IMG/VR virus record: IMGVR_UViG_3300046167_000924
Span: 32,001-96,000 of that record
Origin: a virus
Strand: one strand, 5' to 3'
Length of the DNA: 64,000 nt
Shown here: positions 21,980-34,687 of the stretch, piece by piece
Layout of the letters: each line of letters opens with the position of its first letter
How positions within the stretch are numbered: the stretch's first letter is position 1
Notes under the pieces: model-generated
What the model saw: only the letters and a program-made list of their open reading frames with translations
Told to the model about the DNA's origin: nothing
Database searches by the model: none
Program-made: the position numbers and the translations under genes

Positions 21980-22711
21980 TTACACTTTCTTTTGTATTTT
22001 ACTTATTACATATTTTAGTATTTCACTTCTTTTTATATCTTCTGCTCCAAAATGAAATGTATGTATACCTTTTTCTTTACTTTGATCATCATTAAAAAGA
22101 GAATACATGTCTGCGAAGCCACTCTTTCCATTGATATCACTTTGCATTGGATCACCACAAATAATTAATTTACTGCCGCGACCAAGTCGGGTCATGAGTG
22201 TGGTAAGTTCTTTGAATGTAAAATTCTGCGATTCATCAGCAATAACAATTTCATTCATCCAACTTGCGCCGCGAAGATAATTTACAGGCATTCCTTTGAC
22301 GATATTCTTCTCTTTTATGAGACTGGCTTGGCCAGGAATCAAAAGTTCGTCCAGCTTTTCATTCATAGGCATCATGTATGGATTGATTTTCTCGGCCATT
22401 TCTCCAGGTAGTGCGCCAAGGCTTTTTTCGCCACTCTCGGCGATTGTGCGGACATATGTAATGCCGCGGTCATTATTCATATTATATAATTGTAATGCTC
22501 CATATATTGCTACATATGTTTTACTTGTTCCAGCAGGTCCACTTATAAATATGATACTGGATTCTTTATCAAATATTATTTTTAATAAAGCTAGTTGCTT
22601 TTCTGTTAGGCTTATTTTTTTTAGCTTGATATTGCGTTTGTGGATTGATGAAGCGATTTTGTCAATCTCGTTCTCATCCGTTATCTCGGGTTGTTTACGT
22701 TTTCGAGCCAT
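21980..22711 (-). CDS. phoH: PhoH-family ATPase
   Basis: GPAGTSKT, LGALPG, YLRGAS, ADESQN, CGDPMQSD. Confidence 0.93.
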   Translation of the reverse strand: MARKRKQPEITDENEIDKIASSIHKRNIKLKKISLTEKQLALLKIIFDKESSIIFISGPAGTSKTYVAIYGALQLYNMNNDRGITYVRTIAESGEKSLGALPGEMAEKINPYMMPMNEKLDELLIPGQASLIKEKNIVKGMPVNYLRGASWMNEIVIADESQNFTFKELTTLMTRLGRGSKLIICGDPMQSDINGKSGFADMYSLFNDDQSKEKGIHTFHFGAEDIKRSEILKYVISKIQKKV

Positions 22712-22899: not shown

Positions 22900-22953
22900 T
22901 ACAATATATCTAATAAATATAAACTTTTTTAAACTTTTTTTTCTATGTTTTCA

Positions 22954-22978
22954 TAAGTACTTCTTTATCATATACTTA
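22954..22978 (+). repeat. Single degenerate 25-bp dyad
   Basis: TAAGTACTTC-TTTAT-CATATACTTA, 26 bp before TTGACT at 23005. Confidence 0.65.
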
Positions 22979-23082
22979 CAGCACAAAGTTTTTTTGCTAT
23001 GGGCTTGACTTTTGGCCAAAGTATGTTAGATTGTATATATAAGATTAATTAAAACACTTTAACAATTAACAAAATAAAAATT

Positions 23083-23331
23083 ATGAAATTATCACAAAAT
23101 AAAATACAAGCTCTCTTTTCAATACTTGCCGACGCTGACGAAGGTTGTAACGATCGTGCTTGCGATAACTTAGCAGAAGCCTTTGGTGGTAAACTTGGGC
23201 TTGGTGAAGTTGTTTCTTTACCTTCTGAGTTGTCATCTGAAAAAGTTGTTTCTGAAATACAAGATCCTGAGTTGTTTTGGGAGTCAGGATGCGTCGAAGC
23301 TTGTGAAGAAATACTTGAGCTTGTAAAATAA
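23083..23331 (+). CDS. Hypothetical early protein
   Basis: Follows TTGACT promoter at 23005. Confidence 0.75.
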   Translation: MKLSQNKIQALFSILADADEGCNDRACDNLAEAFGGKLGLGEVVSLPSELSSEKVVSEIQDPELFWESGCVEACEEILELVK

Positions 23332-23370
23332 AGCTTGCATTTTAAATCTTAAAACCTATAATAAATAATT

Positions 23371-23586
23371 ATGAATAAATCACAAATACTTTTCAAAATA
23401 GAATGTTTAAACAGTCGCTTAGATGCTTTTGAGTATGTTCGTGGAATCGGATGGTCTCCTGCTAAAGGGAAAGACAGAATTGAAATTCTTTCAGAAATTA
23501 AAAATTTAAGAGCTGAATTGCCTCGCGCAGAATACGAGCAAGAAGTTGCACAATACGGATGGAAGTCTGTAGAGCGTAATGCTTAA
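23371..23586 (+). CDS. Hypothetical early protein
   Basis: TTGCAT-16-TATAAT-8-ATG. Confidence 0.75.
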   Translation: MNKSQILFKIECLNSRLDAFEYVRGIGWSPAKGKDRIEILSEIKNLRAELPRAEYEQEVAQYGWKSVERNA

Positions 23587-23589
23587 ATT

Positions 23590-23666
23590 GTCAGAATAGC
23601 TCAGCAGGTTAGAGCGTTGGAATCATAACCCAAAGGTCGGCGGTTCAAATCCGCCTTCTGACACCA
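23590..23666 (+). tRNA. tRNA-Met or Ile2 (CAT)
   Basis: Cloverleaf, anticodon CAT, GGTTCAAATCC T-arm, encoded CCA; no initiator features. Confidence 0.85.
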
Positions 23667-23667
23667 A

Positions 23668-23742
23668 GGGCTAATAGCTCAGTGGTAGAGCACCGCCTTG
23701 ATAAGGCGGCGGTCGGTGGTTCAAGTCCACCTTAGCCCACCA
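23668..23742 (+). tRNA. tRNA-Ile (GAT)
   Basis: CCGCC-TTGATAA-GGCGG anticodon arm, encoded CCA. Confidence 0.92.
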
Positions 23743-23753
23743 CTTTAATCTCG

Positions 23754-23830
23754 TAAAGTGTTAAGCGTCAACAACTTACGAGAAATTCTCCTAGGCTTTT
23801 TTGCGTAACTCGTTGGTATACAGCGACTTA
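23754..23830 (+). repeat. 77-bp double-dyad element, copy 1
   Basis: Dyads at 23754 and 23806, 27-bp spacer with CCTAGG. Confidence 0.9.
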
Positions 23831-23884
23831 CAACAAACCTAAAACTTTTCTCAAAATAAACAAACTTTTTTTTGCGTGTTTGCA

Positions 23885-23909
23885 TAAGTATATGATAATC
23901 AACAGCTTA
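23885..23909 (+). repeat. Single 25-bp dyad
   Basis: TAAGTATATG-ATAAT-CAACAGCTTA, 26 bp before TTGACT at 23936. Confidence 0.8.
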
Positions 23910-23970
23910 CAACACAAACTTTTTTTGTTTCAGGCTTGACTTTTGTCGATTTATAGATTAGTTTAATAGT

Positions 23971-24117
23971 ATGTTAGATAAGAAAATAGAACAATTCATT
24001 CAAGACAACGGTCTTGTTCGTGTTCAAGCAAGCCCAATGTCAGAGGCTTTTGACCTTTGGGAATGTCCTGGTGGTCATGTTTGGAATCTTGAGATGATTA
24101 AACAAGCAATAAAATAA
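23971..24117 (+). CDS. Small hypothetical protein (48 aa)
   Basis: TTGACT-17-TAGTTT-6-ATG; MLDKKIEQF..KQAIK. Confidence 0.65.
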   Translation: MLDKKIEQFIQDNGLVRVQASPMSEAFDLWECPGGHVWNLEMIKQAIK

Positions 24118-24166
24118 TTCGCTTTTTGCTTGCAATTACATAAAAAATAGTTTACATTTAAAACAT

Positions 24167-24445
24167 ATGATTAAGACAAATAAAACAACATTCAAAGCAA
24201 TCGTCCATGTACATTCTATTGACGGAGATAAACTTCCATTGTGGAACACACACATGAACGCTTTTGTAGACACTACCTTAACACATCACATCTTGGAAAT
24301 TACTGCTGAAAACAAGCACGAAGTTCGTGCCAAGATCTCTCGCATGATGCCAAAATTACAACACAAAGTCCAACTTAAAAAAGGCTTTGAAAGAAAAGAA
24401 GGCGACAATGCCACTTGGTACATTCAACAAATTTATTCGAAATAA
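24167..24445 (+). CDS. Hypothetical protein, paralog of 25475-25750
   Basis: Shared HxxxIxAExKHEVRxK and RKxGDNAxxYIQ; own promoter. Confidence 0.8.
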   Translation: MIKTNKTTFKAIVHVHSIDGDKLPLWNTHMNAFVDTTLTHHILEITAENKHEVRAKISRMMPKLQHKVQLKKGFERKEGDNATWYIQQIYSK

Positions 24446-24484
24446 GTTTGACACAATAAACAAAATACTTTAATCTACTATCAT

Positions 24485-24700
24485 ATGACAAATACATTAG
24501 AAGACAAATACCCAACTCTCGCAGTCGGGCTTGCAATGTCCAAAGCAGAAGGAAACTTAAAGTTTCTTGCTCAAGCTGAGATGTCAACCTTTACACAAGG
24601 GGAAGCCGTACTTGATGCGTTGCACGCATTACAGCAAGCACGCAAGGCATACGCTGAAGTCACAAAAGAGTTGAGTGAATTAAGAGACGGCTTAAAATAA
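24485..24700 (+). CDS. Hypothetical protein
   Basis: Own TTGACA promoter. Confidence 0.75.
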   Translation: MTNTLEDKYPTLAVGLAMSKAEGNLKFLAQAEMSTFTQGEAVLDALHALQQARKAYAEVTKELSELRDGLK

Positions 24701-24758
24701 TGCTTGACATAATCATTCTGTCTGTCATAATAGGAATCATAACAACAATAAAAGAATC

Positions 24759-25067
24759 ATGCGAAAAGTAACACAACAAATTAAACAAGCATTTGAACGC
24801 GGCGAAGCTAAGACGATTGGCAACACCACCACAGACGGCAACACCGTTTGGTTGCATGGTAACGCGATTGTCAAGCGTGACGCTGACGGCTTGGTTAGAT
24901 GGTCGCTTGCAGGATGGAACACACCCACCACACGCGAACGCGTCAACGGCATAGCTAATGCAGATGTTTGCCAATTCAAATTCGAGCCTATACTAAACGG
25001 GCAAGTCATTGACTCATCCGATTGGTTCGCATCGCCTAATTCATTGCCCGATCCTCTTGTGTTCTAA
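24759..25067 (+). CDS. Hypothetical phage protein
   Basis: LAGWNTPTTRERVNG; stop codon is first 3 nt of element copy 2. Confidence 0.8.
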   Translation: MRKVTQQIKQAFERGEAKTIGNTTTDGNTVWLHGNAIVKRDADGLVRWSLAGWNTPTTRERVNGIANADVCQFKFEPILNGQVIDSSDWFASPNSLPDPLVF

Positions 25068-25141
25068 GTAGCACAGAGTCAACGACTTAGGGCAAATCGC
25101 CCTAGGCTTTTTTGCGTAACTCATTGAATACCAACAGCTTA
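25065..25141 (+). repeat. 77-bp double-dyad element, copy 2
   Basis: Dyads at 25065 and 25117. Confidence 0.9.
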
Positions 25142-25217
25142 CAACAAAATGAAAAAAAAGTTAAAAAAAATGAAAATAATACTTGACTTTTGCCGTTTTG
25201 TCTGATACATTGTATAT

Positions 25218-25415
25218 ATGATTAAGAATAATAAAATACAAGTTCGCATTAAAGAATGGTCAACCCATTGGTCAGTTAAGATCTTTGATCAAGGCACCGA
25301 CTCACAAGGCAATGATCGCCCACGAGTTCGCACGGCATCAAGCCAATCACATCTTAACAAGATCATGAGAGACGAAGGATTTAATCAATTCCGTTTTAAT
25401 GTTGTCTTTCAATAA
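25218..25415 (+). CDS. Hypothetical protein
   Basis: TTGACT-17-TACATT-6-ATG. Confidence 0.75.
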   Translation: MIKNNKIQVRIKEWSTHWSVKIFDQGTDSQGNDRPRVRTASSQSHLNKIMRDEGFNQFRFNVVFQ

Positions 25416-25474
25416 TAAGAAAAAAAAGTAAAATAAAGCTTGACTTTCAACCAAAACTAGATTAGATTATATAT

Positions 25475-25750
25475 ATGATTAAGAATAAAACATTCATTGC
25501 AAGCGTTCATGTCTCTTCCCTCGATGGTGAAGCAATTTCCTTATGGAATAGTAATACCAAGTCATACATCGACATTGACAAGACACATCATGCAATCACT
25601 ATCGAAGCTGAAGATAAGCATGAAGTCAGAAGAAAAGTTGCTCGCATGATTCGCACACTTCAACCGAAATTGCAATTCCAAACAAGCATTCAACGCAAAG
25701 ATGGCGATAATGCACAATACTACATCCAAGAAATAAGAGAGAAGAAATAA
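25475..25750 (+). CDS. Hypothetical protein, paralog of 24167-24445
   Basis: TTGACT-17-TAGATT-6-ATG; alignable over full length. Confidence 0.8.
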   Translation: MIKNKTFIASVHVSSLDGEAISLWNSNTKSYIDIDKTHHAITIEAEDKHEVRRKVARMIRTLQPKLQFQTSIQRKDGDNAQYYIQEIREKK

Positions 25751-25794
25751 ACTTTTCTCTTGACTCGATCACAAAAATTTGCTTTAATAATAAA

Positions 25795-25950
25795 ATGATA
25801 AATGTATTCAGACACCCGAATTTTGCTAATTGGTTTAATGTCGTCTTTAATGGCGAGCTAATTGACGGAGCGAGAACGCACGCACAAGCTCTTGAAATAG
25901 CCAAGGAATTAAGCGTAAAGTACAGTTCGCCGATTCTTTCTTCTAAGTAA
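25795..25950 (+). CDS. Small hypothetical protein (51 aa)
   Basis: Promoter at 25760; MINVFRHPNFANWF..; ends inside element copy 3. Confidence 0.65.
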   Translation: MINVFRHPNFANWFNVVFNGELIDGARTHAQALEIAKELSVKYSSPILSSK

Positions 25951-26020
25951 CTGAAGGTCAACGACTTAGGGTAAATCGCCCTAGCCGGTTTTGCATAACT
26001 CCTTGATAGTCAGCGACTTA
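25944..26020 (+). repeat. 77-bp double-dyad element, copy 3
   Basis: Dyads at 25944 and 25996. Confidence 0.9.
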
Positions 26021-26301
26021 CAACAAAAGTAAAAATAATTAATCTTTTTTTAAAAAACGCTTGACTTTGCTCCATTTTCTGATACATTGTATATATAACA
26101 TTAAATTAATATAACAAAAATAAATTATGAATTACGACATCTTGCTTCTTTTAACTTTTATTCCTGCTTTCTTCTTTATGTATAAATCTATGGCAGAAAA
26201 GAAAATTGATCTTTTTTCAGATGTGAGTAAAGAAAAGCTTGACACAAAATAAAATTACTATAATATAAAAATTATAAATCAAATTGCTAAAAATAAAAAA
26301 T

Positions 26302-26847
26302 ATGAAAATTAAAATATCTGAAGCTTGGAATAAACATCATGGAAAAAACTCTGTAAAGAGTAACAGAACAGATCTCGATCTCGGAGATATGCTTAAAATC
26401 TCAGAGCAAGCACAAGTCAAGTCAGAGCTTGAGGGAATCGAAAAGCTAGAAAAGATGATCGAAGCAAAAAAGAAAGAGATTGCAAACATCAAAGAAAAAT
26501 ACAAAAGAATAAGAAACAAAATCGCCCACGATCCGAAAGTGAAAATGTTAACAGACAGAGAGGAAAGAAACTGCTTTCATCAATCAATTTCAAATCTTGG
26601 AGTAAGAAAAAAGAGTCTTGGATGCTCGCTCGATCAATTCAGAATATTCTTAGATGTTCAACTCGAAGACGGCAAGTCTTGGTCTAATTGGACAAATAAA
26701 AATGTAGACAACGCTTGGAACATTGACCACATACAAGAGCGACAAAGTGGCGGGGGCAATCATTGGTCAAACTTCGTACCTCGTGACAGAAAAGAAAATC
26801 TTAACAAGGGTAAACTTGAAAGTGCATTCAATCATTTCTTGAAATAA
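26302..26847 (+). CDS. HNH endonuclease-like protein
   Basis: LGCS..SWSNW..WNIDHI..NHWSNFVP..ENLNKG. Confidence 0.7.
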   Translation: MKIKISEAWNKHHGKNSVKSNRTDLDLGDMLKISEQAQVKSELEGIEKLEKMIEAKKKEIANIKEKYKRIRNKIAHDPKVKMLTDREERNCFHQSISNLGVRKKSLGCSLDQFRIFLDVQLEDGKSWSNWTNKNVDNAWNIDHIQERQSGGGNHWSNFVPRDRKENLNKGKLESAFNHFLK

Positions 26848-26897
26848 TTCGCATTCACACTTGACAGAAACAAAAAAATAGATTAGATTAAATACAT

Positions 26898-27098
26898 ATG
26901 ACAGAAACATTACTACAAGAAAAAAGAAGGCTTCAAGCCATCATTGACGACAATAACGACGATGCAGAAAATGGATCTACCTCAGCTAAAATGTGCGTGA
27001 TCTCAGCTCAAGCAGATCTCGACAGAATTGCTCAGAGTGAGCTTGCTGAGTTCGTCGCCCACACTCCACTACCTGACCCTCTCATCATAGTTGACTAG
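26898..27098 (+). CDS. Hypothetical protein
   Basis: TTGACA-17-TAGATT-8-ATG; ends LPDPLIIVD just before element copy 4. Confidence 0.75.
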   Translation: MTETLLQEKRRLQAIIDDNNDDAENGSTSAKMCVISAQADLDRIAQSELAEFVAHTPLPDPLIIVD

Positions 27099-27100
27099 CG

Positions 27101-27177
27101 TAAAGCGTTAGTAATCAACAACTTAGGGTAAACCGCCCTCCGGAGTTTTCCGTAACTCGTTGAAAGATAACGACTTA
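27101..27177 (+). repeat. 77-bp double-dyad element, copy 4
   Basis: Dyads at 27101 and 27153. Confidence 0.9.
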
Positions 27178-27306
27178 CAACAAAATCAATACAGATTCCG
27201 TGCCAACTTTGCAAGAAAATAGCAGTCGAATTGTGCAAAAACATAGTTGAAAGGTAAGTGAGAATAAATTTGACAAACCCCTTTTTATGTGTTACCTTGT
27301 AGGTAT

Positions 27307-27510
27307 ATGATTAAGACAAAAGAAACAATAATAAAAGAAATCGACTTCGGAACTAAGCTCGCACAAATGGAGGGAGCGATCGACTTTCTTCATTATATGC
27401 AAACAGAAAAAAAAGATTCCGACAGAACTTTGACCGAAGAAATGACCACCAAAGGACTTCTCGAAAAGGTTCAAGAGCTTAGAAAAATATTCAAAGAATT
27501 ACAAAAATAA
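27307..27510 (+). CDS. Hypothetical protein
   Basis: TTGACA-17-TACCTT-8-ATG. Confidence 0.7.
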   Translation: MIKTKETIIKEIDFGTKLAQMEGAIDFLHYMQTEKKDSDRTLTEEMTTKGLLEKVQELRKIFKELQK

Positions 27511-27559
27511 TTCACTTTGTGCTTGCAATTTACGAAAAAATAGATTAAATTAAATACAT

Positions 27560-27748
27560 ATGATTAAGAAAATTAAATTCAAAAAAGGCGATGTTCTCAT
27601 CTCACGAGATAATAAAGTCTTTCAATTTATTCAAGCTACCAAGCACGACACGCTTGGAATTATCGCAATGGTTCGCCCATACAGAACCAATCGCAAGGTT
27701 GGCATCCGATTTGAGGATGTAAAAATTCATCCACTTTTTGCAAAATAA
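27560..27748 (+). CDS. Hypothetical protein
   Basis: TTGCAA-17-TAAATT-8-ATG. Confidence 0.7.
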   Translation: MIKKIKFKKGDVLISRDNKVFQFIQATKHDTLGIIAMVRPYRTNRKVGIRFEDVKIHPLFAK

Positions 27749-27787
27749 GTTTGACAAACTCACATAATTAATCCATAATACTAAAAT

Positions 27788-28075
27788 ATGAATAACATTG
27801 ATCTCATTCGCCAAGCAATCGAAAACGCAAAAGATGCACCTGTTTCTAAAGGTTTGTCTAGCTTCATTCAAGACATGAAAGCCGAAATTATGGCTGAGGA
27901 GTTGGTCGTTGAGCATGGCTTGCTCGAAGCAACTCAAAGAGATGTCGAGGATGAGGTTTCAGAATTGGCTTCATCCGAAGACAAAGCCGAAGAAGATGAT
28001 GACTTCGACAATGACGAAAACCTCCACGATATGGAGTCAGTCAGTCCATCTATGCGAGCAATCTTTGAAGATTGA
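27788..28075 (+). CDS. Acidic hypothetical protein
   Basis: TTGACA-17-CATAAT-8-ATG. Confidence 0.75.
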   Translation: MNNIDLIRQAIENAKDAPVSKGLSSFIQDMKAEIMAEELVVEHGLLEATQRDVEDEVSELASSEDKAEEDDDFDNDENLHDMESVSPSMRAIFED

Positions 28076-28112
28076 TCTCGACAAGTCGCCCTCAATATGG
28101 TATAATAATAGC

Positions 28113-28286
28113 ATGAACAAAGCAATAACAGAAAAAATTGATACATTAATCAGCACGCTTCAAGCGTTGACAATTCAAAGAGTCAATGCCTTGAGACTCG
28201 GCAAGCAAGAAGAAGCAAGCCAAATTCAAGCCGTGCAAATTGATATTGACAATAAAATTCAAGAGTTAGAAAGGTCAATGTCCTAG
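28113..28286 (+). CDS. Small coiled-coil protein
   Basis: TCGACA-17-TATAAT-6-ATG. Confidence 0.7.
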   Translation: MNKAITEKIDTLISTLQALTIQRVNALRLGKQEEASQIQAVQIDIDNKIQELERSMS

Positions 28287-28360
28287 TGGATTTGTTAACA
28301 ATTATGATTATCGCATCGTTAATTGGAATTTTTAGAGGCTTAACTGATTGTGCCTTTTAA
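28286..28360 (+). CDS. 24-aa hydrophobic peptide
   Basis: GTG overlapping TAG; MDLLTIMIIASLIGIFRGLTDCAF. Confidence 0.45.
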   Translation: MDLLTIMIIASLIGIFRGLTDCAF

Positions 28361-28404
28361 TTGCACAATCCCTTTATAGGGCAAGAGAAAAGTTTAGTTT
28401 TTCC

Positions 28405-28481
28405 TAAGTTGTTGCAAGTCAATGACTTAGGGAAAGCCGCCCAAGGCTTTTTTTCGTAAGTCCTTAATTACAAGTGACTTA
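28405..28481 (+). repeat. 77-bp double-dyad element, copy 5
   Basis: Dyads at 28405 and 28457. Confidence 0.9.
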
Positions 28482-28536
28482 CAACAGAATGAAAAAAAAG
28501 TTTGACAAAGCTGTACGATTTTGATAGATTACAATT

Positions 28537-28728
28537 ATGGAAAATAATGATTCACTCACTCGCCTCTCTCACGCCAACGGCATCACCGATGTCGATCTTG
28601 ACGAGCGTCAAGCAATCCTTGGCCAGCTTGTTCAAGACGAGCTGGAGGAGTCTGATCGTCAGGCTCTAAAACAATTCTCTGAAAATGAGGATATAGACTG
28701 GGGCTACCACGACCAATACGACTTTTAA
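28537..28728 (+). CDS. Acidic hypothetical protein
   Basis: TTGACA-17-TAGATT-6-ATG. Confidence 0.75.
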   Translation: MENNDSLTRLSHANGITDVDLDERQAILGQLVQDELEESDRQALKQFSENEDIDWGYHDQYDF

Positions 28729-28730
28729 CA

Positions 28731-28807
28731 TAAGTCGTTAAACATCAAGGGCTTAGGGAAAACCATCCTAGGCCTTTTTTCGCAAGTCGTTGATACTCAA
28801 CACATTC
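28731..28807 (+). repeat. 77-bp double-dyad element, copy 6 (last arm degenerate) at convergent junction
   Basis: Dyads at 28731 and 28783. Confidence 0.85.
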
Positions 28808-28852
28808 GGATTTCTTAGTTCAAATCATTATTTATGTATTTGTATTTGTTGT

Positions 28853-29029
28853 TTAAATATTTGGTATTTGCAACTTTACCGTTCGTTTGGTCAATTCAAT
28901 TGTATAAGGTGAATGTTCAGTTACTCGATCAAGATCTGATTCGAGGTTACGAATGGCGTTGACAATATAGTCGAGCGTGCCAACGATTCCGGCGGGCTCT
29001 CCGTTTTTAAGTATTTGGTAACTAGTCAT
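28853..29029 (-). CDS. Hypothetical protein
   Basis: Start MTSYQIL overlaps upstream stop. Confidence 0.6.
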   Translation of the reverse strand: MTSYQILKNGEPAGIVGTLDYIVNAIRNLESDLDRVTEHSPYTIELTKRTVKLQIPNI

Positions 29030-29354
29030 TTTTTTGTTTATCTTGTTTTGTTTTCTGCAAAAGCTTTTCGTGTTGCACTCCATCTTGTTGAAATTGACTC
29101 ATCAACTTAGAAACTTGCATTCTATCCTGCCAACCAAGAACATCGTCAAAAGGTTGCAACGGAACAAAATCTCCACGCTGATTGAATACTGCGACTTCGT
29201 AAGTGTTTGGGTGATCTCCATAAAAACAAGTTCCACCTTCTACATTGGATACAACGCTAATAGCGTAACCATTATCGAAAGTTATACTTGCTTGGACTCC
29301 CAAATCTTTTGCACTAGAGTGAGGTTGAAAGTTCAAATCATCAAAGGTCTTCAT
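29022..29354 (-). CDS. Hypothetical phage protein
   Basis: FDNGYAISVV..YEVAV; coupled in operon. Confidence 0.75.
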   Translation of the reverse strand: MKTFDDLNFQPHSSAKDLGVQASITFDNGYAISVVSNVEGGTCFYGDHPNTYEVAVFNQRGDFVPLQPFDDVLGWQDRMQVSKLMSQFQQDGVQHEKLLQKTKQDKQKND

Positions 29355-29541
29355 GGTAGATATATATTGGATTATTGTTGTGTGTGAGTGTTGCGTGTTT
29401 TACGAATGTTTTACTTGAGATGTTCTTCTCGAATGTTGCTTGCGAGATAAAGACATCGGTCTGCTCGGTCTTCTTCTCTGCTTTAATAAGGACAACGCAT
29501 CCGTCTTTGCTTTTGGTAATTAGATGTTTTTCTTTGTTCAT
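29341..29541 (-). CDS. Hypothetical protein
   Basis: Operon-coupled ORF. Confidence 0.6.
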   Translation of the reverse strand: MNKEKHLITKSKDGCVVLIKAEKKTEQTDVFISQATFEKNISSKTFVKHATLTHNNNPIYIYHEDL

Positions 29542-29784
29542 TTAGTTTCTGTAATGAGATGAGTCTTGCGATTCTGTGAGAGTTTCGTAAGCGTGAGCTT
29601 TTTGAGCGATGCACTTTAACGCACTACCAACTACATTTAACATTGAAAGTTGATCATTGTCAAGCATATTCTTGTCGGTCATAGGCTCGATCATATTGTC
29701 ATGGATGAATGCCATAACTAATTCGTTTGCTTCGAGCGAGTCAACATCTTGGACTTGCAAGTGGTTTGGGTCGTTAAGATACAT
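29542..29784 (-). CDS. Hypothetical protein
   Basis: Operon-coupled ORF. Confidence 0.65.
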   Translation of the reverse strand: MYLNDPNHLQVQDVDSLEANELVMAFIHDNMIEPMTDKNMLDNDQLSMLNVVGSALKCIAQKAHAYETLTESQDSSHYRN

Positions 29785-29899
29785 AAGTCAATTTGGTTTT
29801 GTGTTTTAGTTTTCTGTCAAGAATTTTGTTTTTCATCTTGAAAGGGCGAGCTTTTGTAAAGAGAATGGATTGTCTTATCTTAATTTTTTTCGCTTTCAT
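29774..29899 (-). CDS. 41-aa basic peptide
   Basis: TTGACT-16-CATACT-7-ATG; MKAKKIKIRQ..RKLKHK. Confidence 0.6.
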   Translation of the reverse strand: MKAKKIKIRQSILFTKARPFKMKNKILDRKLKHKTKLTYVS

Positions 29900-29962
29900 A
29901 ATTAATAGTATGACAGAATTTTTTGTGAAGTCAAGTGTTTTTTTAGTGAATAATAAAATGAT

Positions 29963-30064
29963 ACCAAACACGGAGGGAGTCGAACCCACAAGAGTATAAT
30001 TAGGACTGCAATCCGCACCTCTCTTAATCACCACTAATTTGCAGATTAGTTTGATCGTGTTGGT
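29963..30064 (-). ncRNA. tRNA-Cys-like non-canonical RNA
   Basis: Own promoter; closing stem ACCAACACG/CGTGTTTGGT; GCGGATTGCAGTCC; T-arm GGGTTCGACTCCC; no CCA. Confidence 0.5.
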
Positions 30065-30130
30065 AAGTATTAGTATGTCAGAATCTCAAACTAAGTCAAC
30101 CCCTAAATGCAAAAAAAATGAAAATAGTTG

Positions 30131-30207
30131 CAAGCTCTTGATGCTCAATGACTTGCGCGAAAACGCCCAGGGCTTTTTGCCCTAACTAGTTCATAGCCAA
30201 CAGTTTA
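30131..30207 (-). repeat. 77-bp double-dyad element, copy 7
   Basis: Dyads at 30131 and 30183. Confidence 0.85.
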
Positions 30208-30451
30208 TGACATCTGCATAAATACATAATAAAATGTATGCACTAAAGGTTAATAAAATTGATGTAAATAATAATGCTTTAATCATTTTAATATCCTAAC
30301 CATTCCAATACTTTTTGTGCATTATACTCTTCTTTGTCGCCCATGTCCAAAATAAATTGATGAATATCTTGGCAACCATGTTTTGAGAGTTCCTCAAACG
30401 CTCTTGTTTGGCTAATCATTAAATCTTCGGCTGAATCGTAATATGTTTCAC

Positions 30452-31174
30452 TCATGAGTTTATCCCTTCCTTTACAAATCCTGTACTATCCTTTTTTGCC
30501 ATACCTTTCTCGATAAGACCAACGACCACACCTTGCTTGTCTAAAAAGCGAAGGTCATTATCATCGCCATTGATAACTTCAAAACCTTGCCAAGTTTTAG
30601 GTAATTGATTGCGAAACACTACGGCAACATTGCCACCCATGCCCAAAACCATTTTGCCAAGTTTCTGATTGGTTTCGGAAAGTGAGAAAGTTAAATGGTA
30701 GTTACTTGGCAATTCTCCATGAATAAATTGTTTCATCCGTTCAAATGACTTTGTATAGTCATAAAATTGAATTGACGGAAACTTATCAAAGATTGACTTT
30801 GGCTGATCTTCGCTGAAGAAAACAGATTCCCAAGCGATGTCGCTTGTAAGGTTAAGTCTGAAGACGGACTTCATTCCTTTCTTTGTAGATGTCTTAATTG
30901 AATTAGAAATTTCCTTTGATAACTTTGCAAGAAAATCCAACTGCTGAGTAAAAAACAATTTTGTCTTTGCTATGCGAGACTTTTGGATTGAGTCCATGCG
31001 ACCACGACCAGCAGTGTTAAGGCAAGAAGCAGTGCAACCTTTACTTCGCCAACGACAAACTTCGAAGCCCGAAAGTTGAGCAGGAGCGAGGTGAATTCCT
31101 TTAGTTGTATAGCCTAGCTTTTCGCCTTTGACTATCTTTGCGTTTCCTTGAGTGAGTAGTGTTGTCTTAATCAT
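30452..31174 (-). CDS. Gp88-like phage protein (radical-SAM-like Cys motif)
   Basis: CRWRSKGCTASCL, FRLNLTSD, FYDYTK, YHLTFS, GNVAVVF, DLRFLD; start 31174 from promoter. Confidence 0.8.
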   Translation of the reverse strand: MIKTTLLTQGNAKIVKGEKLGYTTKGIHLAPAQLSGFEVCRWRSKGCTASCLNTAGRGRMDSIQKSRIAKTKLFFTQQLDFLAKLSKEISNSIKTSTKKGMKSVFRLNLTSDIAWESVFFSEDQPKSIFDKFPSIQFYDYTKSFERMKQFIHGELPSNYHLTFSLSETNQKLGKMVLGMGGNVAVVFRNQLPKTWQGFEVINGDDNDLRFLDKQGVVVGLIEKGMAKKDSTGFVKEGINS

Positions 31175-31247
31175 GTATTCCATTATGACAGAATAAGGTG
31201 TGAAGTCAACCCCTAAATGCAAAAAAAGTAAAAAAAGTTTTGTTGCG

Positions 31248-31324
31248 GATGTCGTTGATACGCAAAGGCTTACGAAAAAAAGCCTAGGCCCGTTTTCCAT
31301 AACTGCCTGGCCTGCAACGACTTA
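31248..31324 (-). repeat. 77-bp double-dyad element, copy 8
   Basis: Dyads at 31248 and 31300. Confidence 0.85.
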
Positions 31325-31345
31325 CGAAACAATAATTCAAGATGC

Positions 31346-31371
31346 AAAAAAGCCTCCCCGAAGGGAGGCTT
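31346..31371 (-). terminator. Intrinsic terminator
   Basis: AGCCTCCC-TTCG-GGGAGGCT plus T run. Confidence 0.9.
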
Positions 31372-31397
31372 GAGCCTACTCGTTTCCGAGCTTGCGA

Positions 31398-31628
31398 TTA
31401 ACCAACTGACCTCTTAAAAGATTTGTTAGCACAAGTCGCACGAAGAACATGGCGACGATTAACTCGACGATTTGCTCCATTCATGTCCGAAAACATAACA
31501 TGACGAGAAGTCACGCTATTGACTTTAGCAGAGAAGACCTTGCGTTGCTCACCTTGCTTGACAAGAAGAGAAACGAAACGACCTTTGAGACTATCAACTA
31601 CATTTTTGAGTTTTGCTTGATTTTTCAT
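31398..31628 (-). CDS. Basic hypothetical protein
   Basis: aaaattATG start, followed by terminator. Confidence 0.75.
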   Translation of the reverse strand: MKNQAKLKNVVDSLKGRFVSLLVKQGEQRKVFSAKVNSVTSRHVMFSDMNGANRRVNRRHVLRATCANKSFKRSVG

Positions 31629-31675
31629 AATTTTAATTTTTGTTAGGTTTGTGTTTTGGTTTTGATTAAGAATGA

Positions 31676-32413
31676 TTACTTTACAAGTGCGACTTCGGAG
31701 TCAAGAACACCATGCAATGCGAGAGAACGATTTGGTAAGGCATGAACTCCACCTTTAAGGACATGAGTAAAGCCGTTATACAATGAGTGCATATTCCGAG
31801 CAGAAAAGTCATCATGTTCGGGTTTGTGCCATTGCTCAACTACATCAGCGATTTTGCCCTTGCTGATAGCACCATTTTGAAAAGCACGGATAACAAGGTC
31901 ATGGGCTTGCTCGTTGCCAAGTTCGTACTCTTTGTACGCTTCGATGCGTTTCTCATCGCTTGCCCATGTCTCAGTCATCTTGCCGAGAGTGCGAGCGATA
32001 ACTTGAGACAAGTCAGTCAAAATGTTTTTTGTGTGCCGTCTTGCAAGAGTCACTTCGTTAGTGAAGATAAGGTTGGAGCAAACAAATGGAGCATTGCCCA
32101 TGCACAAACCTGCTGGAAAGCATTTGTCGTGTGAGTTGCGAAGACCAAGGACTGTGCCACGATCATCAGCATCAGAACCCGTGTTCTTGACATGGAAGAG
32201 ACCGAAGTAACGCTGACCGAATCTGTGAAGAGAATGGTAAGTGTCAACAATTTCCCAACCATTGTCTTGAATTTGGTTTTGCACACGATCAACAAGGAAC
32301 GCATGACCGATTGGTTGCCAAGACTCAGTCTTTTCGGGAGTCTGTACGGACTTTACTTCGCTAAAGTCAATTCTTTTTGTGCCACATACGGAGAGATCAA
32401 TTTTTTTATTCAT
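31676..32413 (-). CDS. DUF932-family protein
   Basis: LGLRNSHDK and PFVCSNL motifs. Confidence 0.8.
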   Translation of the reverse strand: MNKKIDLSVCGTKRIDFSEVKSVQTPEKTESWQPIGHAFLVDRVQNQIQDNGWEIVDTYHSLHRFGQRYFGLFHVKNTGSDADDRGTVLGLRNSHDKCFPAGLCMGNAPFVCSNLIFTNEVTLARRHTKNILTDLSQVIARTLGKMTETWASDEKRIEAYKEYELGNEQAHDLVIRAFQNGAISKGKIADVVEQWHKPEHDDFSARNMHSLYNGFTHVLKGGVHALPNRSLALHGVLDSEVALVK

Positions 32414-32613
32414 AATTTTTAGTGTTGGTTTATCGTCTTTGATGGGTTAATTATACTAAAGTTTTTGGTTTTTGTCAAGCTTTTTTTTCTTCGATTAAGT
32501 TTTTTTTGTTTCGACTAATTTTTTTTAAGTTCAGTTATCTCGCTTATGTATACAAGTATGACAGAAAATGATGTAATGTCAACCCTTTTTTTTCATAAAA
32601 ATAAAGATTGTCG

Positions 32614-32690
32614 TAAGTTTCTTAGTATCAATGAGTTAGGGCAAACCGGCCAGGGCGATTTTTTGCAAGTCGTTGTATAGCAAAGGCTAA
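32614..32690 (-). repeat. 77-bp double-dyad element, copy 9
   Basis: Dyads at 32614 and 32666. Confidence 0.85.
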
Positions 32691-32724
32691 GGCGAGCTTG
32701 GATTTACCAAGCCCGCCCCTTTAA

Positions 32725-32889
32725 CTATACCCTTTTTTCGAGAGAGTAAAGTTCACCAAGAAGAAGGTTGTGAGCCAATTTCTTAGCAAACAATTCTTCT
32801 CCCCTCAAGCCTCGCAATTCAGCTTGAGCCAAAGCGTAGCCCATATTGCGAACTTTATTCCTAAGGTTTTCAATTCGAGAATTTCGCAT
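32725..32889 (-). CDS. Small hypothetical protein (54 aa)
   Basis: MRNSRIENL..EKRV, followed by hairpin. Confidence 0.6.
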   Translation of the reverse strand: MRNSRIENLRNKVRNMGYALAQAELRGLRGEELFAKKLAHNLLLGELYSLEKRV

Positions 32890-32892
32890 ATC

Positions 32893-33102
32893 TTATCCTT
32901 GGTTAGGTTGTGAATAGTGGTTGTAAGATTGTTCTGCTTCTTGGGCAGAGTCAAAACTTACTGCGATTAAATCCCTTGAGTCATAAGGATGCCAAGGCGT
33001 GGCAGACTCTTCAAAGTACAATTCCCATTGCTCTGAATCTTGGTTGAAACTTGGTTTGTCAAGAGGTTGTCCCTCGCATACTGCATCAATATATTCGTTC
33101 AT
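32893..33102 (-). CDS. Hypothetical protein
   Basis: Operon-coupled ORF. Confidence 0.7.
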   Translation of the reverse strand: MNEYIDAVCEGQPLDKPSFNQDSEQWELYFEESATPWHPYDSRDLIAVSFDSAQEAEQSYNHYSQPNQG

Positions 33103-33104
33103 CC

Positions 33105-33302
33105 TTATCCCTCCATGTGGTTGAGTAATTGGTCAAGAACAGATTGCTTGTTGCCCTTGAATCCGAATTCAGATTTTACAATCGAGTAGCAACTTCTACC
33201 TCTCGACATCTTTAGTCCATTCATTTCCAATTTTATTCCTCTTGCGAGAGTCCTTAATCGGAATGCGTTAATTTGTTGTGGTGTTTCTAGTGTCATGCTC
33301 AT
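33105..33302 (-). CDS. Hypothetical protein
   Basis: TTGACT-16-CAAACT-7-ATG. Confidence 0.75.
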   Translation of the reverse strand: MSMTLETPQQINAFRLRTLARGIKLEMNGLKMSRGRSCYSIVKSEFGFKGNKQSVLDQLLNHMEG

Positions 33303-33340
33303 AATGTATAGTTTGTCAGATTTTCAGCAAAAGTCAAGCC

Positions 33341-33748
33341 TTAATACCAAGAAGAGTAAAAAATTCTGTGCTTTTTCTCAAGCATTTTTCTTGCTTCTTT
33401 GATGAATGTCAAGTCAGATTCTTTGTACCAATAATCGTTATCGGCATGAGGTTCGTCATTTTCGTCAGTCCAAAAATAAGAATCTGAACCAAAAAAGAAT
33501 CCATCTGTTTCGGGAAGTTCAAAGTTAAGAATTGCTTCCTCAAGAGAATCAATGTCTTCAGATGTGAGTGGTAATACTGCACAATTAAAATCACCATCTT
33601 CATTTGCGTTTGGACAACCTTTGCTTTGCCAAAGGTCTTCCATCCAACCTTGCAAGCGATTGTGTTTTCTCCACTCGCCAATTTGAATATCATCATCCGA
33701 GTTGCGTTTGCGTGGTGGTCGTGCGTATGCGTATTGATCTAATCCCAT
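33341..33748 (-). CDS. Conserved-type phage protein (MGLDQY..WRKHN)
   Basis: MGLD start, WRKxN, GFFFG, YSSWY end. Confidence 0.8.
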   Translation of the reverse strand: MGLDQYAYARPPRKRNSDDDIQIGEWRKHNRLQGWMEDLWQSKGCPNANEDGDFNCAVLPLTSEDIDSLEEAILNFELPETDGFFFGSDSYFWTDENDEPHADNDYWYKESDLTFIKEARKMLEKKHRIFYSSWY

Positions 33749-33764
33749 GATTTTTTCCTTGTGT

Positions 33765-34013
33765 TTATAGTTGTGCTGATTGAAATGAAGACTCTATTCT
33801 AAGCTCATTTTGCAATGATGTCAAACTTAAAATGATGTCTTCTAAAACTTCTTCGGCTGATTGAAATGTACTTCCAAGTGGAAACTTTTCGGGGTGACGC
33901 TCGTTCTGTTCCAAGCAAACCTTGGACATTGGATCTGCGTATGCCATTTCTCCTCGAACGATGCTTAAAATGTTTTCTCTAATTTTTGCTTGCGTCATAA
34001 TTACTTGCTCCAA
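33765..34013 (-). CDS. Hypothetical protein
   Basis: Operon ORF. Confidence 0.65.
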   Translation of the reverse strand: MEQVIMTQAKIRENILSIVRGEMAYADPMSKVCLEQNERHPEKFPLGSTFQSAEEVLEDIILSLTSLQNELRIESSFQSAQL

Positions 34014-34146
34014 TCTACTTCATCTAGTTGAACTTCTCCCATTCCGAAGATTAACTCGAAAATCACCATTAACTCTGTCGGACTTAAATAGTCAAATTGG
34101 TCAATGATCTCTTTTTTGATGCTTGTTTTGGTCATTTGTGTTTCAT

Positions 34147-34545
34147 TCATAATACTGCTAATACTTGTTTGGGTTCTAATCTTACGGCAATAGCATAGTC
34201 TACCATTTGTTCCGTGTCCTTGTCAACAAAATTCTCATACTTATATGGGTTGTATGAAACAGGTCGTGCGGTGGGATGAGATTCTCTCCAATCACCCATT
34301 TGCCAATTCTCTATATAACCCTCGATTCCTGCATGAACATTTTTACGCTGTTCTTTTAAAACTCTTTCTCGCCCACTCTTGCTAACCTTGAAGGTGCAAC
34401 TATGCATTGCCAATAATTTAGTGTGAGCCTTGACCAATCCGTTTTGCTTGATGCTCCAACATTTTTTGTGAAGATTTTTGTAAACAAAAACAGGACTGCC
34501 AAAGTCAATCTTATATCTTTTTTCGTTAGGCTTAGTCTTAATCAT
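34147..34545 (-). CDS. Hypothetical phage protein
   Basis: VYKNLHKKCWS, RKNVHA, YNPYK; TTGACT-16-CATACT-7-ATG. Confidence 0.8.
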   Translation of the reverse strand: MIKTKPNEKRYKIDFGSPVFVYKNLHKKCWSIKQNGLVKAHTKLLAMHSCTFKVSKSGRERVLKEQRKNVHAGIEGYIENWQMGDWRESHPTARPVSYNPYKYENFVDKDTEQMVDYAIAVRLEPKQVLAVL

Positions 34546-34610
34546 GTATATAAGTATGACAGGTTTTTACCGCAAGTCAACCTTTTTTTTCATTTAATTG
34601 AATATAGTTG

Positions 34611-34687
34611 TAAGTTGTTGAGCTCCAAAGACTTACGTAAAAAAGCCTAGGCGGATTTTCCGCAACTTGTTGATATACAACGACTTA
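34611..34687 (-). repeat. 77-bp double-dyad element, copy 10
   Basis: Dyads at 34611 and 34663. Confidence 0.9.

Follow-up and report, generated by a model that had tools for sequence, protein, structure and literature searches.

The early genes of an uncultured marine phage are divided into cassettes by ten 77-bp repeats, each of which holds two palindromic dyads around a GC-containing core. We consider it probable that this repeat is a boundary module of early-gene cassettes, made of phased protein sites read by a host binder and giving rise to cassette recombination as a by-product. From one cassette to the next such a module would run from the end of the upstream gene through a 27-bp palindrome, a GC inverted repeat, a second 27-bp palindrome and an A-rich tract to a promoter.

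The window, meaning the whole 64-kb stretch of DNA that was analysed, was scanned with a profile of the element. All ten 77-bp elements listed in the first-pass annotation were recovered at their coordinates, all of them between 23.7 and 34.7 kb, and the scan found no further element in the rest of the 64-kb window. Half-sites with at most one mismatch to CAACGACTTA crowd into the same interval, and when up to two mismatches were allowed there were 86 matches versus 56.6 +/- 7.4 in shuffled sequence. A 125.7-kb relative (93% complete) also has ten double dyads, all within 73-84 kb. The 52-bp register between dyads holds in the window because all ten elements align without gaps, and nine of the ten pass the dyad threshold at exactly 52 bp.

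Element 1 (23754-23830, plus strand) follows two tRNA genes, has the core CTCCTAGGC followed by T6 and scored 78 bits on the plus strand versus 34 on the minus strand. The TAA of element 2 (25065-25141, plus) is the stop codon of the ORF at 24759-25067, and dyad 1 of element 3 (25944-26020, plus) contains the stop codon of the ORF at 25795-25950. Element 4 (27101-27177, plus) has the variant core CCCTCCGGAG and the next good -35 box lies 91 nt downstream; in element 5 (28405-28481, plus) a -35 box, TTGACA, is found 19-20 nt past dyad 2. Element 6 (28731-28807, plus) lies where plus and minus transcription converge and its dyad 2 is degenerate. Element 7 (30131-30207, minus) scored 46 bits on the minus strand versus 29 on the plus strand, element 8 (31248-31324, minus) is preceded in the minus direction by a separate strong terminator (31350-31371), element 9 (32614-32690) is ambiguous in orientation (42 versus 37 bits) and element 10 (34611-34687, minus; 76 versus 39 bits) is followed by a minus-strand promoter, TTGACT-16-CATACT, at 34553-34580. 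As had been claimed, orientation is with transcription: the elements from 23754 to 28731 are plus, those at 30131, 31248 and 34611 are minus and 32614 is ambiguous. Their supposed placement at or near stop codons was confirmed for four of the ten (25065, 25944, 27101 and 28731). The two single dyads that had been reported (22954-22978 and 23885-23909, both plus) are real and belong to the left (22931-23014) and right (23862-23945) copies of one 84-bp direct repeat, which also has a promoter.

The dyads were compared across 82 unique element copies from related viral contigs. Covariation was absent, with 73.9% of cells pairing versus 74.9% in column shuffles; RNAalifold returned zero consensus pairs and a C.C mismatch at columns 62/80 was kept in 66 of the 82 copies. 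The earlier observation that the N4 positions vary without keeping complementarity was borne out on this set, and dyads that do not covary favour protein readout over hairpins, as had been proposed. Because base-pair covariation is absent in the 82 copies, the dyads are not RNA or single-stranded DNA hairpins. RNA hairpin, cloverleaf and long-hairpin folds were rejected on this absence and on that of an RNAalifold consensus, and REP/REPIN or MITE hairpin repeats were rejected as neither compensatory changes nor, in the window, a transposase was found. No Rfam family matched the elements, the only Rfam matches in the window being tRNAs and a manA RNA elsewhere. Among the matches listed, at least 120 loci from many lineages show a constant dyad consensus and divergent spacers, with proteins down to 40-60% identity. 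The dyads look like double-stranded protein sites with a half-site, (A)TCAA-N4-TTA, that resembles the IHF consensus. Each palindrome can be described as an oriented (A)TCAA-N4-TTA(C/G), which matches the conserved IHF positions, together with a second, inverted copy that overlaps it, and would serve as a double-stranded site for a dimeric or bending protein.

A half-site profile built from 994 unique dyads was rich in information at TCAA and TTA and poor at the first two N positions, like WATCAANNNNTTR. The A before TCAA was present in only 47% of half-sites, and three positions that are free in the IHF consensus were conserved: N3 (A, 84%), N4 (C, 71%) and the base after TTA. Exact IHF consensus matches had been noted at 23897, 27113 and 32626; these were present along with others at 25996, 28783 and 34663, so that the strict consensus is exact in only about 6 of 40 window half-sites. 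Classical IHF sites are asymmetric and are bound by one heterodimer, unlike the marine sites, which are palindromic and contain two motifs that overlap in inverted orientation. No phage HU/IHF gene was found in G001-G006 or in Stenotrophomonas phage DLP6, G004 giving only a sub-threshold 12-bit match. A dyad scan of bacterial genomes gave no evidence on the host: it returned three short MAG contigs from three different phyla, which do not count as such evidence because they are probably binned phage DNA. The leading candidate binder is IHF or an HU-family relative, an assignment we make tentatively, at somewhat less than an even chance.

The first-pass annotation had read the 52-bp spacing as five helical turns. 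The inter-dyad spacing is fixed at 52 bp in the lineage of the window, but other lineages fix other spacings (41/42, 48-50, 53 or 58 bp), so the five-turn reading cannot be generalised. A helical rule valid for every pair of dyads, suggested by the likeness of the step from 41 to 52 bp to one turn, was dropped when the wider sample broke it, the dyads being out of phase in lineages with 48-50 and 58 bp.

The promoter link of the elements was upheld. Promoters with a -35 box of TTGACT or TTGACA, a 16-17 nt spacer and TAnnnT follow eight of the ten elements at 19-91 nt, for example TTGACT-17-TACATT at 25183-25211 on the plus strand, which comes after an element and its A-rich tract; the element-to--35 distances given earlier were correct within 1. 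Distances from dyad to -35 box cluster at 19, 29-31, 39-41 and 91-93 in the lineage of the window and are periodic at about 10.5-11 bp across many lineages. In the periodogram the maximum lay at 10.6-11 bp for two sets of unique contexts, one of 193 and one of 112 (67 loci); these statistics overstate independence because the element copies are related. The promoters are of sigma-70 type and would be strong, and the promoter-proximal site keeps a fixed helix face relative to the -35 box. Because of this fixed face, a bound protein most likely shapes the DNA upstream of the promoter, and it would thereby stimulate or gate early transcription; it may also stop read-through into the following cassette.

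The same motif was found through a literature string search in DLP6 (KU682439.2), a cultured, T4-like soil phage unrelated to the marine one, where it is repeated directly in tandem in front of 14 early promoters. The 14 tandem pairs of AAATCAACGACTTA (28 copies forward, 3 reverse) are nearly always co-oriented with transcription and start at or on a stop codon (TRA-AATCAACGACTTAG); the sites are asymmetric and all 28 forward copies are exact IHF consensus. The proximal copy lies 11, 11, 12, 21 (three times), 22 (five times), 32 and 32 nt from the -35 box TTTACT, and is thus quantised at 11-12, 21-22 and 32 nt; unrelated hairpins of varying length lie in between. The helical phase differs by about 2-3.5 bp, with marine peaks at about 7.6 + 10.6n versus 11.5 + 10.4n in DLP6. 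The string search gave the only DNA match of the element or its region to a cultured phage, near or distant. At BLAST level the genes common to DLP6 and the marine phages are only PhoH, ribonucleotide reductase and dCMP deaminase, and this sharing of nothing beyond nucleotide-metabolism genes and PhoH points to a host factor. The binder is most likely a conserved host protein, since DLP6 shares no regulatory gene and carries this motif at the corresponding position.

The dyads could instead be operators of a phage regulator made after infection, either an early shut-off repressor or a phi29-p4-like switch, which would bind both dyads and rely on their helical register either to contact RNA polymerase or to occlude it. 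Palindromes fit a homodimer, there are conserved bases that IHF leaves unread, and the elements are restricted to the early region, which is also rich in conserved small ORFs of no assigned function. We nevertheless think this unlikely. Searches of the approximately 115 ORFs of the window gave no HTH, RHH or repressor family, DLP6 has the motif and its context with no shared candidate regulator at BLAST level, and co-evolution would be expected to make the sites drift, yet the consensus is constant over 36% to 56% GC. MotA-box, boxA, Ter/Tus, FNR and Fur look-alikes were dropped because they did not fit in spacing or in bases.

Between the two putative protein sites, every core has a GC inverted repeat flanked by A- and T-tracts, with covariation at pair 35-41. 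A canonical terminator (hairpin plus T-run) is seen in only one of the ten window cores, that of element 2 (25086-25106 plus the T-run), which alone passed a simple terminator scan, and by a looser rule in 15 of the 82 copies. The core would act as an insulator or a weak terminator and be strong only in some copies. Another reading has the motif act in RNA as a 3'-UTR signal between stop codon and terminator. It would then be a site governing RNA processing or stability, or else a multi-frame stop cassette freeing the RNA of ribosomes ahead of the terminator. The DLP6 motif is co-oriented and starts at or on the stop codon, four window elements provide or adjoin one, and a 372-nt RNA-library contig (31285-31656) ends within element 8, a weak hint. 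The RNA libraries (X19 and X21) consist of contigs with small shares and show no transcript ends or expression levels. An RNA role is improbable all the same, as dyad 2 sits 3' of the T-tract and yet is more conserved than dyad 1, covariation is absent, the marine sites are palindromic and the helically quantised -35 distances are a property of DNA.

The first-pass annotation had held that the same cassette order in relatives would speak against its proposal; gain, loss and exchange of cassettes were instead seen at the elements. One cassette (23015-23862, plus) consists of two ORFs, tRNA-Met, tRNA-Ile and element 1, is flanked by the 84-bp repeat of dyad plus promoter and is missing from the relative L003. 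Another (28466-28730, plus) carries a promoter and a 63-aa ORF and has its ends inside two dyads, the second of element 5 and the first of element 6; L003, L017 and L072 have a fused dyad-core-dyad-core-dyad in its place, and both forms were present in one seawater run (X3). When relatives are compared, homology breaks off and cassettes are gained or lost within elements, some breakpoints lie in promoter or start-codon parts, the junction overlaps of 8-16 bp are typical of homologous exchange, and chimeric elements were found (L046:1925 and L003:7568). A tandem 27-bp repeat in L047 is half-site-like and was set aside as a separate, iteron-like array. Pfam and PHROGs searches detected no recombinase, integrase, transposase or repressor among the approximately 115 window ORFs, and no mini-circle junction was seen among the contigs, the only data searched for one. 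The window ORFs also gave candidate hits to Sigma70_r2, zf-C2H2 and Xre_MbcA_ParS_C. The suggested cassette-shuffling site was thus supported as to gain, loss and exchange and not as to a site-specific mode; ordinary homologous exchange fits better because no recombinase was found and breakpoints also lie in promoter parts. That the dyads are core sites of integron- or Xer-like cassette recombination, or ends of MITE-like elements, is very doubtful: the attC-like layout (two inverted-repeat 'simple sites' and a variable centre at the cassette 3' end), the precise presence or absence of cassettes with dyad junctions and the chimeric elements agree with it, but the missing enzymes, the cassettes' own promoters, the absent hairpin covariation, the breakpoints in promoter and start-codon parts and the overlaps of homologous-exchange size all argue against it, and it leaves promoter phasing and presence in unrelated phages unexplained.

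If the repeat is a boundary module with phased sites for a host protein, its 80-130 bp of repeated sequence would supply the homology by which cassettes are added, deleted and swapped, like those of the promoter-early stem-loops (PeSLs) considered below. To our knowledge hardly any work exists on the early promoters of large phages that have not been cultured, and the present results suggest a conserved cis-element, rigidly phased, in front of the early promoters of many phage lineages and of DLP6. Early expression would then require a particular DNA-binding protein of the host (or one carried in the virion), and the insulation and swapping of accessory-gene cassettes in the most variable part of the genome would be accounted for. 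A more speculative extension, which we rate as possible and less than likely, is that the oriented 13-bp (A)TCAA-N4-TTA(C/G) is a cross-phage 'adaptor' for a conserved host architectural protein that makes cassettes portable. Unrelated large phages (DLP6 and widespread marine and freshwater families) would set the motif ahead of early promoters in helical register, and cassettes would work and recombine in any genome using the same code.

Several known systems resemble the element. In integron attC sites, too, a pair of inverted-repeat sub-sites flanks a variable centre, at the cassette 3' end and co-oriented with the gene. Unlike them, the window elements conserve sequence and not fold, with covariation absent, and among the approximately 115 ORFs there is neither an integron integrase (IntI) nor promoterless cassettes, as the cassettes carry promoters. 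Stoperators of mycobacteriophages L5 and Bxb1 are asymmetric 13-bp sites for the phages' own repressor, spread genome-wide in temperate phages. What they share with the elements is a single protein site repeated many times in short gaps between genes, pointing in the direction of transcription and frequently placed at stop codons; the window sites differ in being palindromic pairs, in lying in the early region only and in that no repressor gene was found. IHF sites (WATCAANNNNTTR) precede early promoters in phages, lambda pL and Mu Pe among them. These are alike in the conserved TCAA and TTR, the free first N positions and the helix-face-dependent placement upstream of strong early promoters, whereas the marine sites are palindromic with extra conserved positions, and come as 10-30 rigid pairs per genome.

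The first-pass annotation did not recognise the repeat as a described element, but a precedent exists in the promoter/terminator cassettes known as PeSLs, found in T4-type phages (Arbiol et al. 2010, PMC2839356; Comeau et al. 2014, PMC4122927). Like the repeat described here, these combine a stem-loop with an early promoter of sigma-70 type, sit between small ORFs in a hyperplastic region, have a stem-loop of type A3-4 G3-loop-C3 T3-4, as in phage nt-1, and occur in many copies with indels and replacements between relatives and chimeric elements (PMC2839356, PMC4122927). The window repeat includes a sigma-70-type early promoter, and small variable ORFs with indels or replacements were found in close relatives. 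PeSLs as described have neither conserved palindromes nor an IHF-like motif beside the stem-loop, and neither a fixed length nor a reported helical register to the -35 box (PMC2839356, PMC4122927); the stem-loop of the window is often too weak for a terminator, and the phage itself is not close to T4, its terminase being about 25% identical to that of any cultured phage. On these sequence features the element is a PeSL variant with added phased sites, PeSLs being the closest known kind. The PeSL idea would then reach beyond relatives of T4 and provide a sequence handle for early regions in metagenomic contigs.

A profile built from the ten 77-bp elements listed in the first-pass annotation (numbered 1 to 10, 23754 to 34611) was scanned across the window. 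The scan recovered all ten and no others in the 64 kb, every one of them within 23.7-34.7 kb. The elements align without any gap, so the two dyads stand 52 bp apart in each copy. Asymmetric marks (an A-tract before the GC core, a T-tract after it and an ACAACAA flank after dyad 2, the promoter-proximal dyad) orient the elements, and their reported orientation with transcription held, with elements on the + strand up to 28.8 kb and on the - strand beyond, 32614 being ambiguous. The single dyads reported at 22954 and 23885 were both located within an 84-bp direct repeat, which includes a promoter as well. The perfect palindrome TAAGTCGTTG-N5-CAACGACTTA was found in 0 of ~300 dyads of the window's lineage (class-I loci), where dyad 2 retains C at the position where symmetry needs G; perfect palindromes are present in other lineages (L077, L079, L086, L090 and others).

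A pattern scan of IMG/VR recovered 72 loci, many of them syntenic with the window, carrying ~150 further elements (129 unique). The relative G003 (125.7 kb, 93% complete) has ten double dyads in 73-84 kb and essentially none elsewhere. A more distant lineage (L004, L023) carries the same dyads and has early-gene orthologues whose proteins are 40-80% identical; its spacer is a 14-bp GC-rich palindrome and its spacing 41 bp. Scanning for dyads only extended the family to at least 120 loci from many phage lineages, some on contigs of 100-190 kb. Among the matches listed, spacing is fixed per lineage at 41/42, 48-50, 52, 53 or 58 bp and the centre between the dyads is a GC-rich inverted repeat in every lineage, that of the 58-bp class being GACCCC-tetraloop-GGGGTC with a T-run. 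Because each lineage fixes its own spacing, 52 bp, invariant in the window's lineage, is a lineage trait; the proposed five-turn rule fails as a general one. At L047:14718-14830, on an otherwise unrelated contig, four to five half-site-like tandem 27-bp units (AAATCGTTATAAATCAATGACTTAC) form an iteron-like array.

Downstream of most elements come an A-rich tract and then a sigma-70-type promoter. Dyad 2 to -35 distances in the window's lineage cluster at 19, 29-31, 39-41 and 91-93 nt. Across all lineages the periodogram of this distance peaked at 10.6-10.8 bp (power 12.8, 193 unique contexts), and with stricter promoters at 10.7-11 bp (power 10-11; 112 contexts, 67 loci), powers that are not clean probabilities as the copies are related. 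Several unrelated early ORFs have promoter-proximal DNA and first codons in common (ATGATTAAGA..., MIK(T/N)K; 24152-24203, 27292-27343 and 27545-27596), and ORFs 24167-24445 and 25475-25750 are paralogues.

A full-text search located the half-site in a paper on the cultured Stenotrophomonas phage DLP6 (PMC5349666), within its table of terminators. In the DLP6 genome (KU682439.2), 28 copies of AAATCAACGACTTA(C/G) run forward and 3 in reverse, arranged as 14 tandem pairs with copies 25-26 bp apart. These pairs mark fourteen unannotated promoter modules within 45312-144778 (loci L194-L213), each with two tandem AAATCAACGACTTA. Every pair begins at or on a stop codon; after each come a GC-rich stretch or hairpin and then an early promoter, TTTACT-16-TATAAT. 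Distances from the -35 box to the proximal copy are 11, 11, 12, 21 (three times), 22 (five times), 32 and 32 nt, and this quantisation (11-12, 21-22, 32 nt) persists despite intervening hairpins of differing sequence and length. No other single observation speaks as strongly for a putative face-of-helix function in DNA. The marine series is offset in phase from the DLP6 series by about 2-3.5 bp.

Information in the half-site profile (n=1,988) is high at T-C-A-A and T-T-A and low at the first two of the four intervening bases, and the centre prefers A/T; each dyad consists of two inverted copies of this motif that overlap at TTGA-N3-TCAA. Protein readout of the dyads had been favoured over hairpins, and 82 unique ungapped copies bear this out. 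Standard pairs filled 73.9% of cells at dyad positions versus 74.9% after shuffling 3' letters within columns, double changes in dyad pairs were rarer than in shuffles, long-range pairings did no better than shuffles, and RNAalifold returned no consensus pair. A C.C mismatch (columns 62/80) is kept in 66/82 copies, and the half-site variants CAACGAC, CAAGGAC, CAAGCAC and CAACAAC combine freely within dyads. Together this argues for dyads read as double-stranded DNA, against RNA or single-stranded DNA hairpins. Dyad 2, downstream of the T-tract, is better conserved than dyad 1. Compensatory change was seen only at the top of the central hairpin (pair 35-41). As few cores pass a hairpin plus T-run rule (1/10 in the window, 15/82 in the family) and a separate strong terminator precedes element 8, the centre would at best be a weak or context-dependent terminator. 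RNA structure as the identity of the elements was rejected, with no pairing above shuffles in the 82 copies.

Identical cassette order across relatives, named in the first-pass annotation as counting against its proposal, was not found. L003, L017 and L072 lack a 265-bp cassette (28466-28730, promoter plus 63-aa ORF); in these loci two cores are joined by one common dyad with a junction overlap of 8-16 bp. Contigs of seawater run X3 contain both the full form and a fused form (joint 28459 to 28752) bearing the same 18 bridging letters. A second cassette (23015-23862), which carries two ORFs, two tRNAs and element 1 and is flanked by the 84-bp dyad and promoter repeat, is not in L003, and cassette content differs widely between lineages. 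Homology blocks against eleven related loci end in or beside elements and their promoters, and many between relatives stop just past a start codon (e.g. 25235). Chimeric elements take their left half from one paralogue and their right half from another (L046:1925, L003:7568), and chimeric joints also occur in runs X21 and X2 (27135/27138 to 23799). No phage recombinase was found among ~115 ORFs and the breakpoints are spread over more than one position, so ordinary homologous exchange, as demonstrated for the promoter-early stem-loop (PeSL) cassettes of T4-type phages (PMC2839356), would be the economical explanation; there was no sign of an integron-like system.

The window, which belongs to a large, uncultured phage from the sea, encodes Pol III alpha, a ClpB-like ATPase, a T4-type terminase N-domain, rIIA and PhoH, with four tRNAs and one manA RNA (Rfam RF01745; 35864-36075, - strand, 89 bits, full length). 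No near relative was found among 50,697 GenBank phage records; seawater metagenomes of 19 studies carry near-identical DNA. The PhoH-like ATPase gene (21980-22711, - strand) directly adjoins the array, as does PhoH in 44/115 dyad-bearing loci among the matches listed, and PhoH is the sole window protein with a DLP6 homologue. PhoH is common in marine phages and its position may be coincidence. Eight tandem 126-bp units (6968-8149, 94% identical) make ORF 6258-8384 (- strand, 708 aa) a 42-aa repeat protein. A hydrophobic 18-codon mini-ORF (MIIASLIGIFRGLTDCAF; 28305-28361, + strand) lies between ORF 28113-28286 and element 5. Window ORFs (alignment A2) gave one Pfam match each to Sigma70_r2, GAF, UvdE, ERCC4 and C2H2 zinc finger; the protein resembling a sigma factor may act at middle or late promoters.

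At BLAST level, the genes common to DLP6 (56% GC) and the marine phages (36-38% GC) are limited to PhoH, ribonucleotide reductase and dCMP deaminase, and searches of DLP6 and of the marine phage genomes G002 and G003 found no HU/IHF gene. On these findings, one phage-encoded binder common to both is unlikely. The predicted binder is most simply read as a conserved host protein, with IHF the leading, unproven candidate. The reported IHF resemblance stands in part. Half-sites share TCAA and TTA, the positions conserved in the IHF consensus WATCAANNNNTTR, but strict matches to it within the window's elements number only six, and 47% of half-sites (n=1,988) carry the A of ATCAA. They differ from IHF sites in also conserving two positions free in the consensus and the base after TTA.

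What is new here is that the motif is tied to a cultured phage with its host, a system where binding, phasing and IHF dependence become testable, and that DLP6 and the marine phages have no phage regulator in common at BLAST level. By analogy, we interpret the elements as PeSL-like cassette boundaries (PMC2839356, PMC4122927). Unlike PeSLs as described, they add a conserved pair of putative protein-site palindromes, and these stand in helical register with the promoter that follows.
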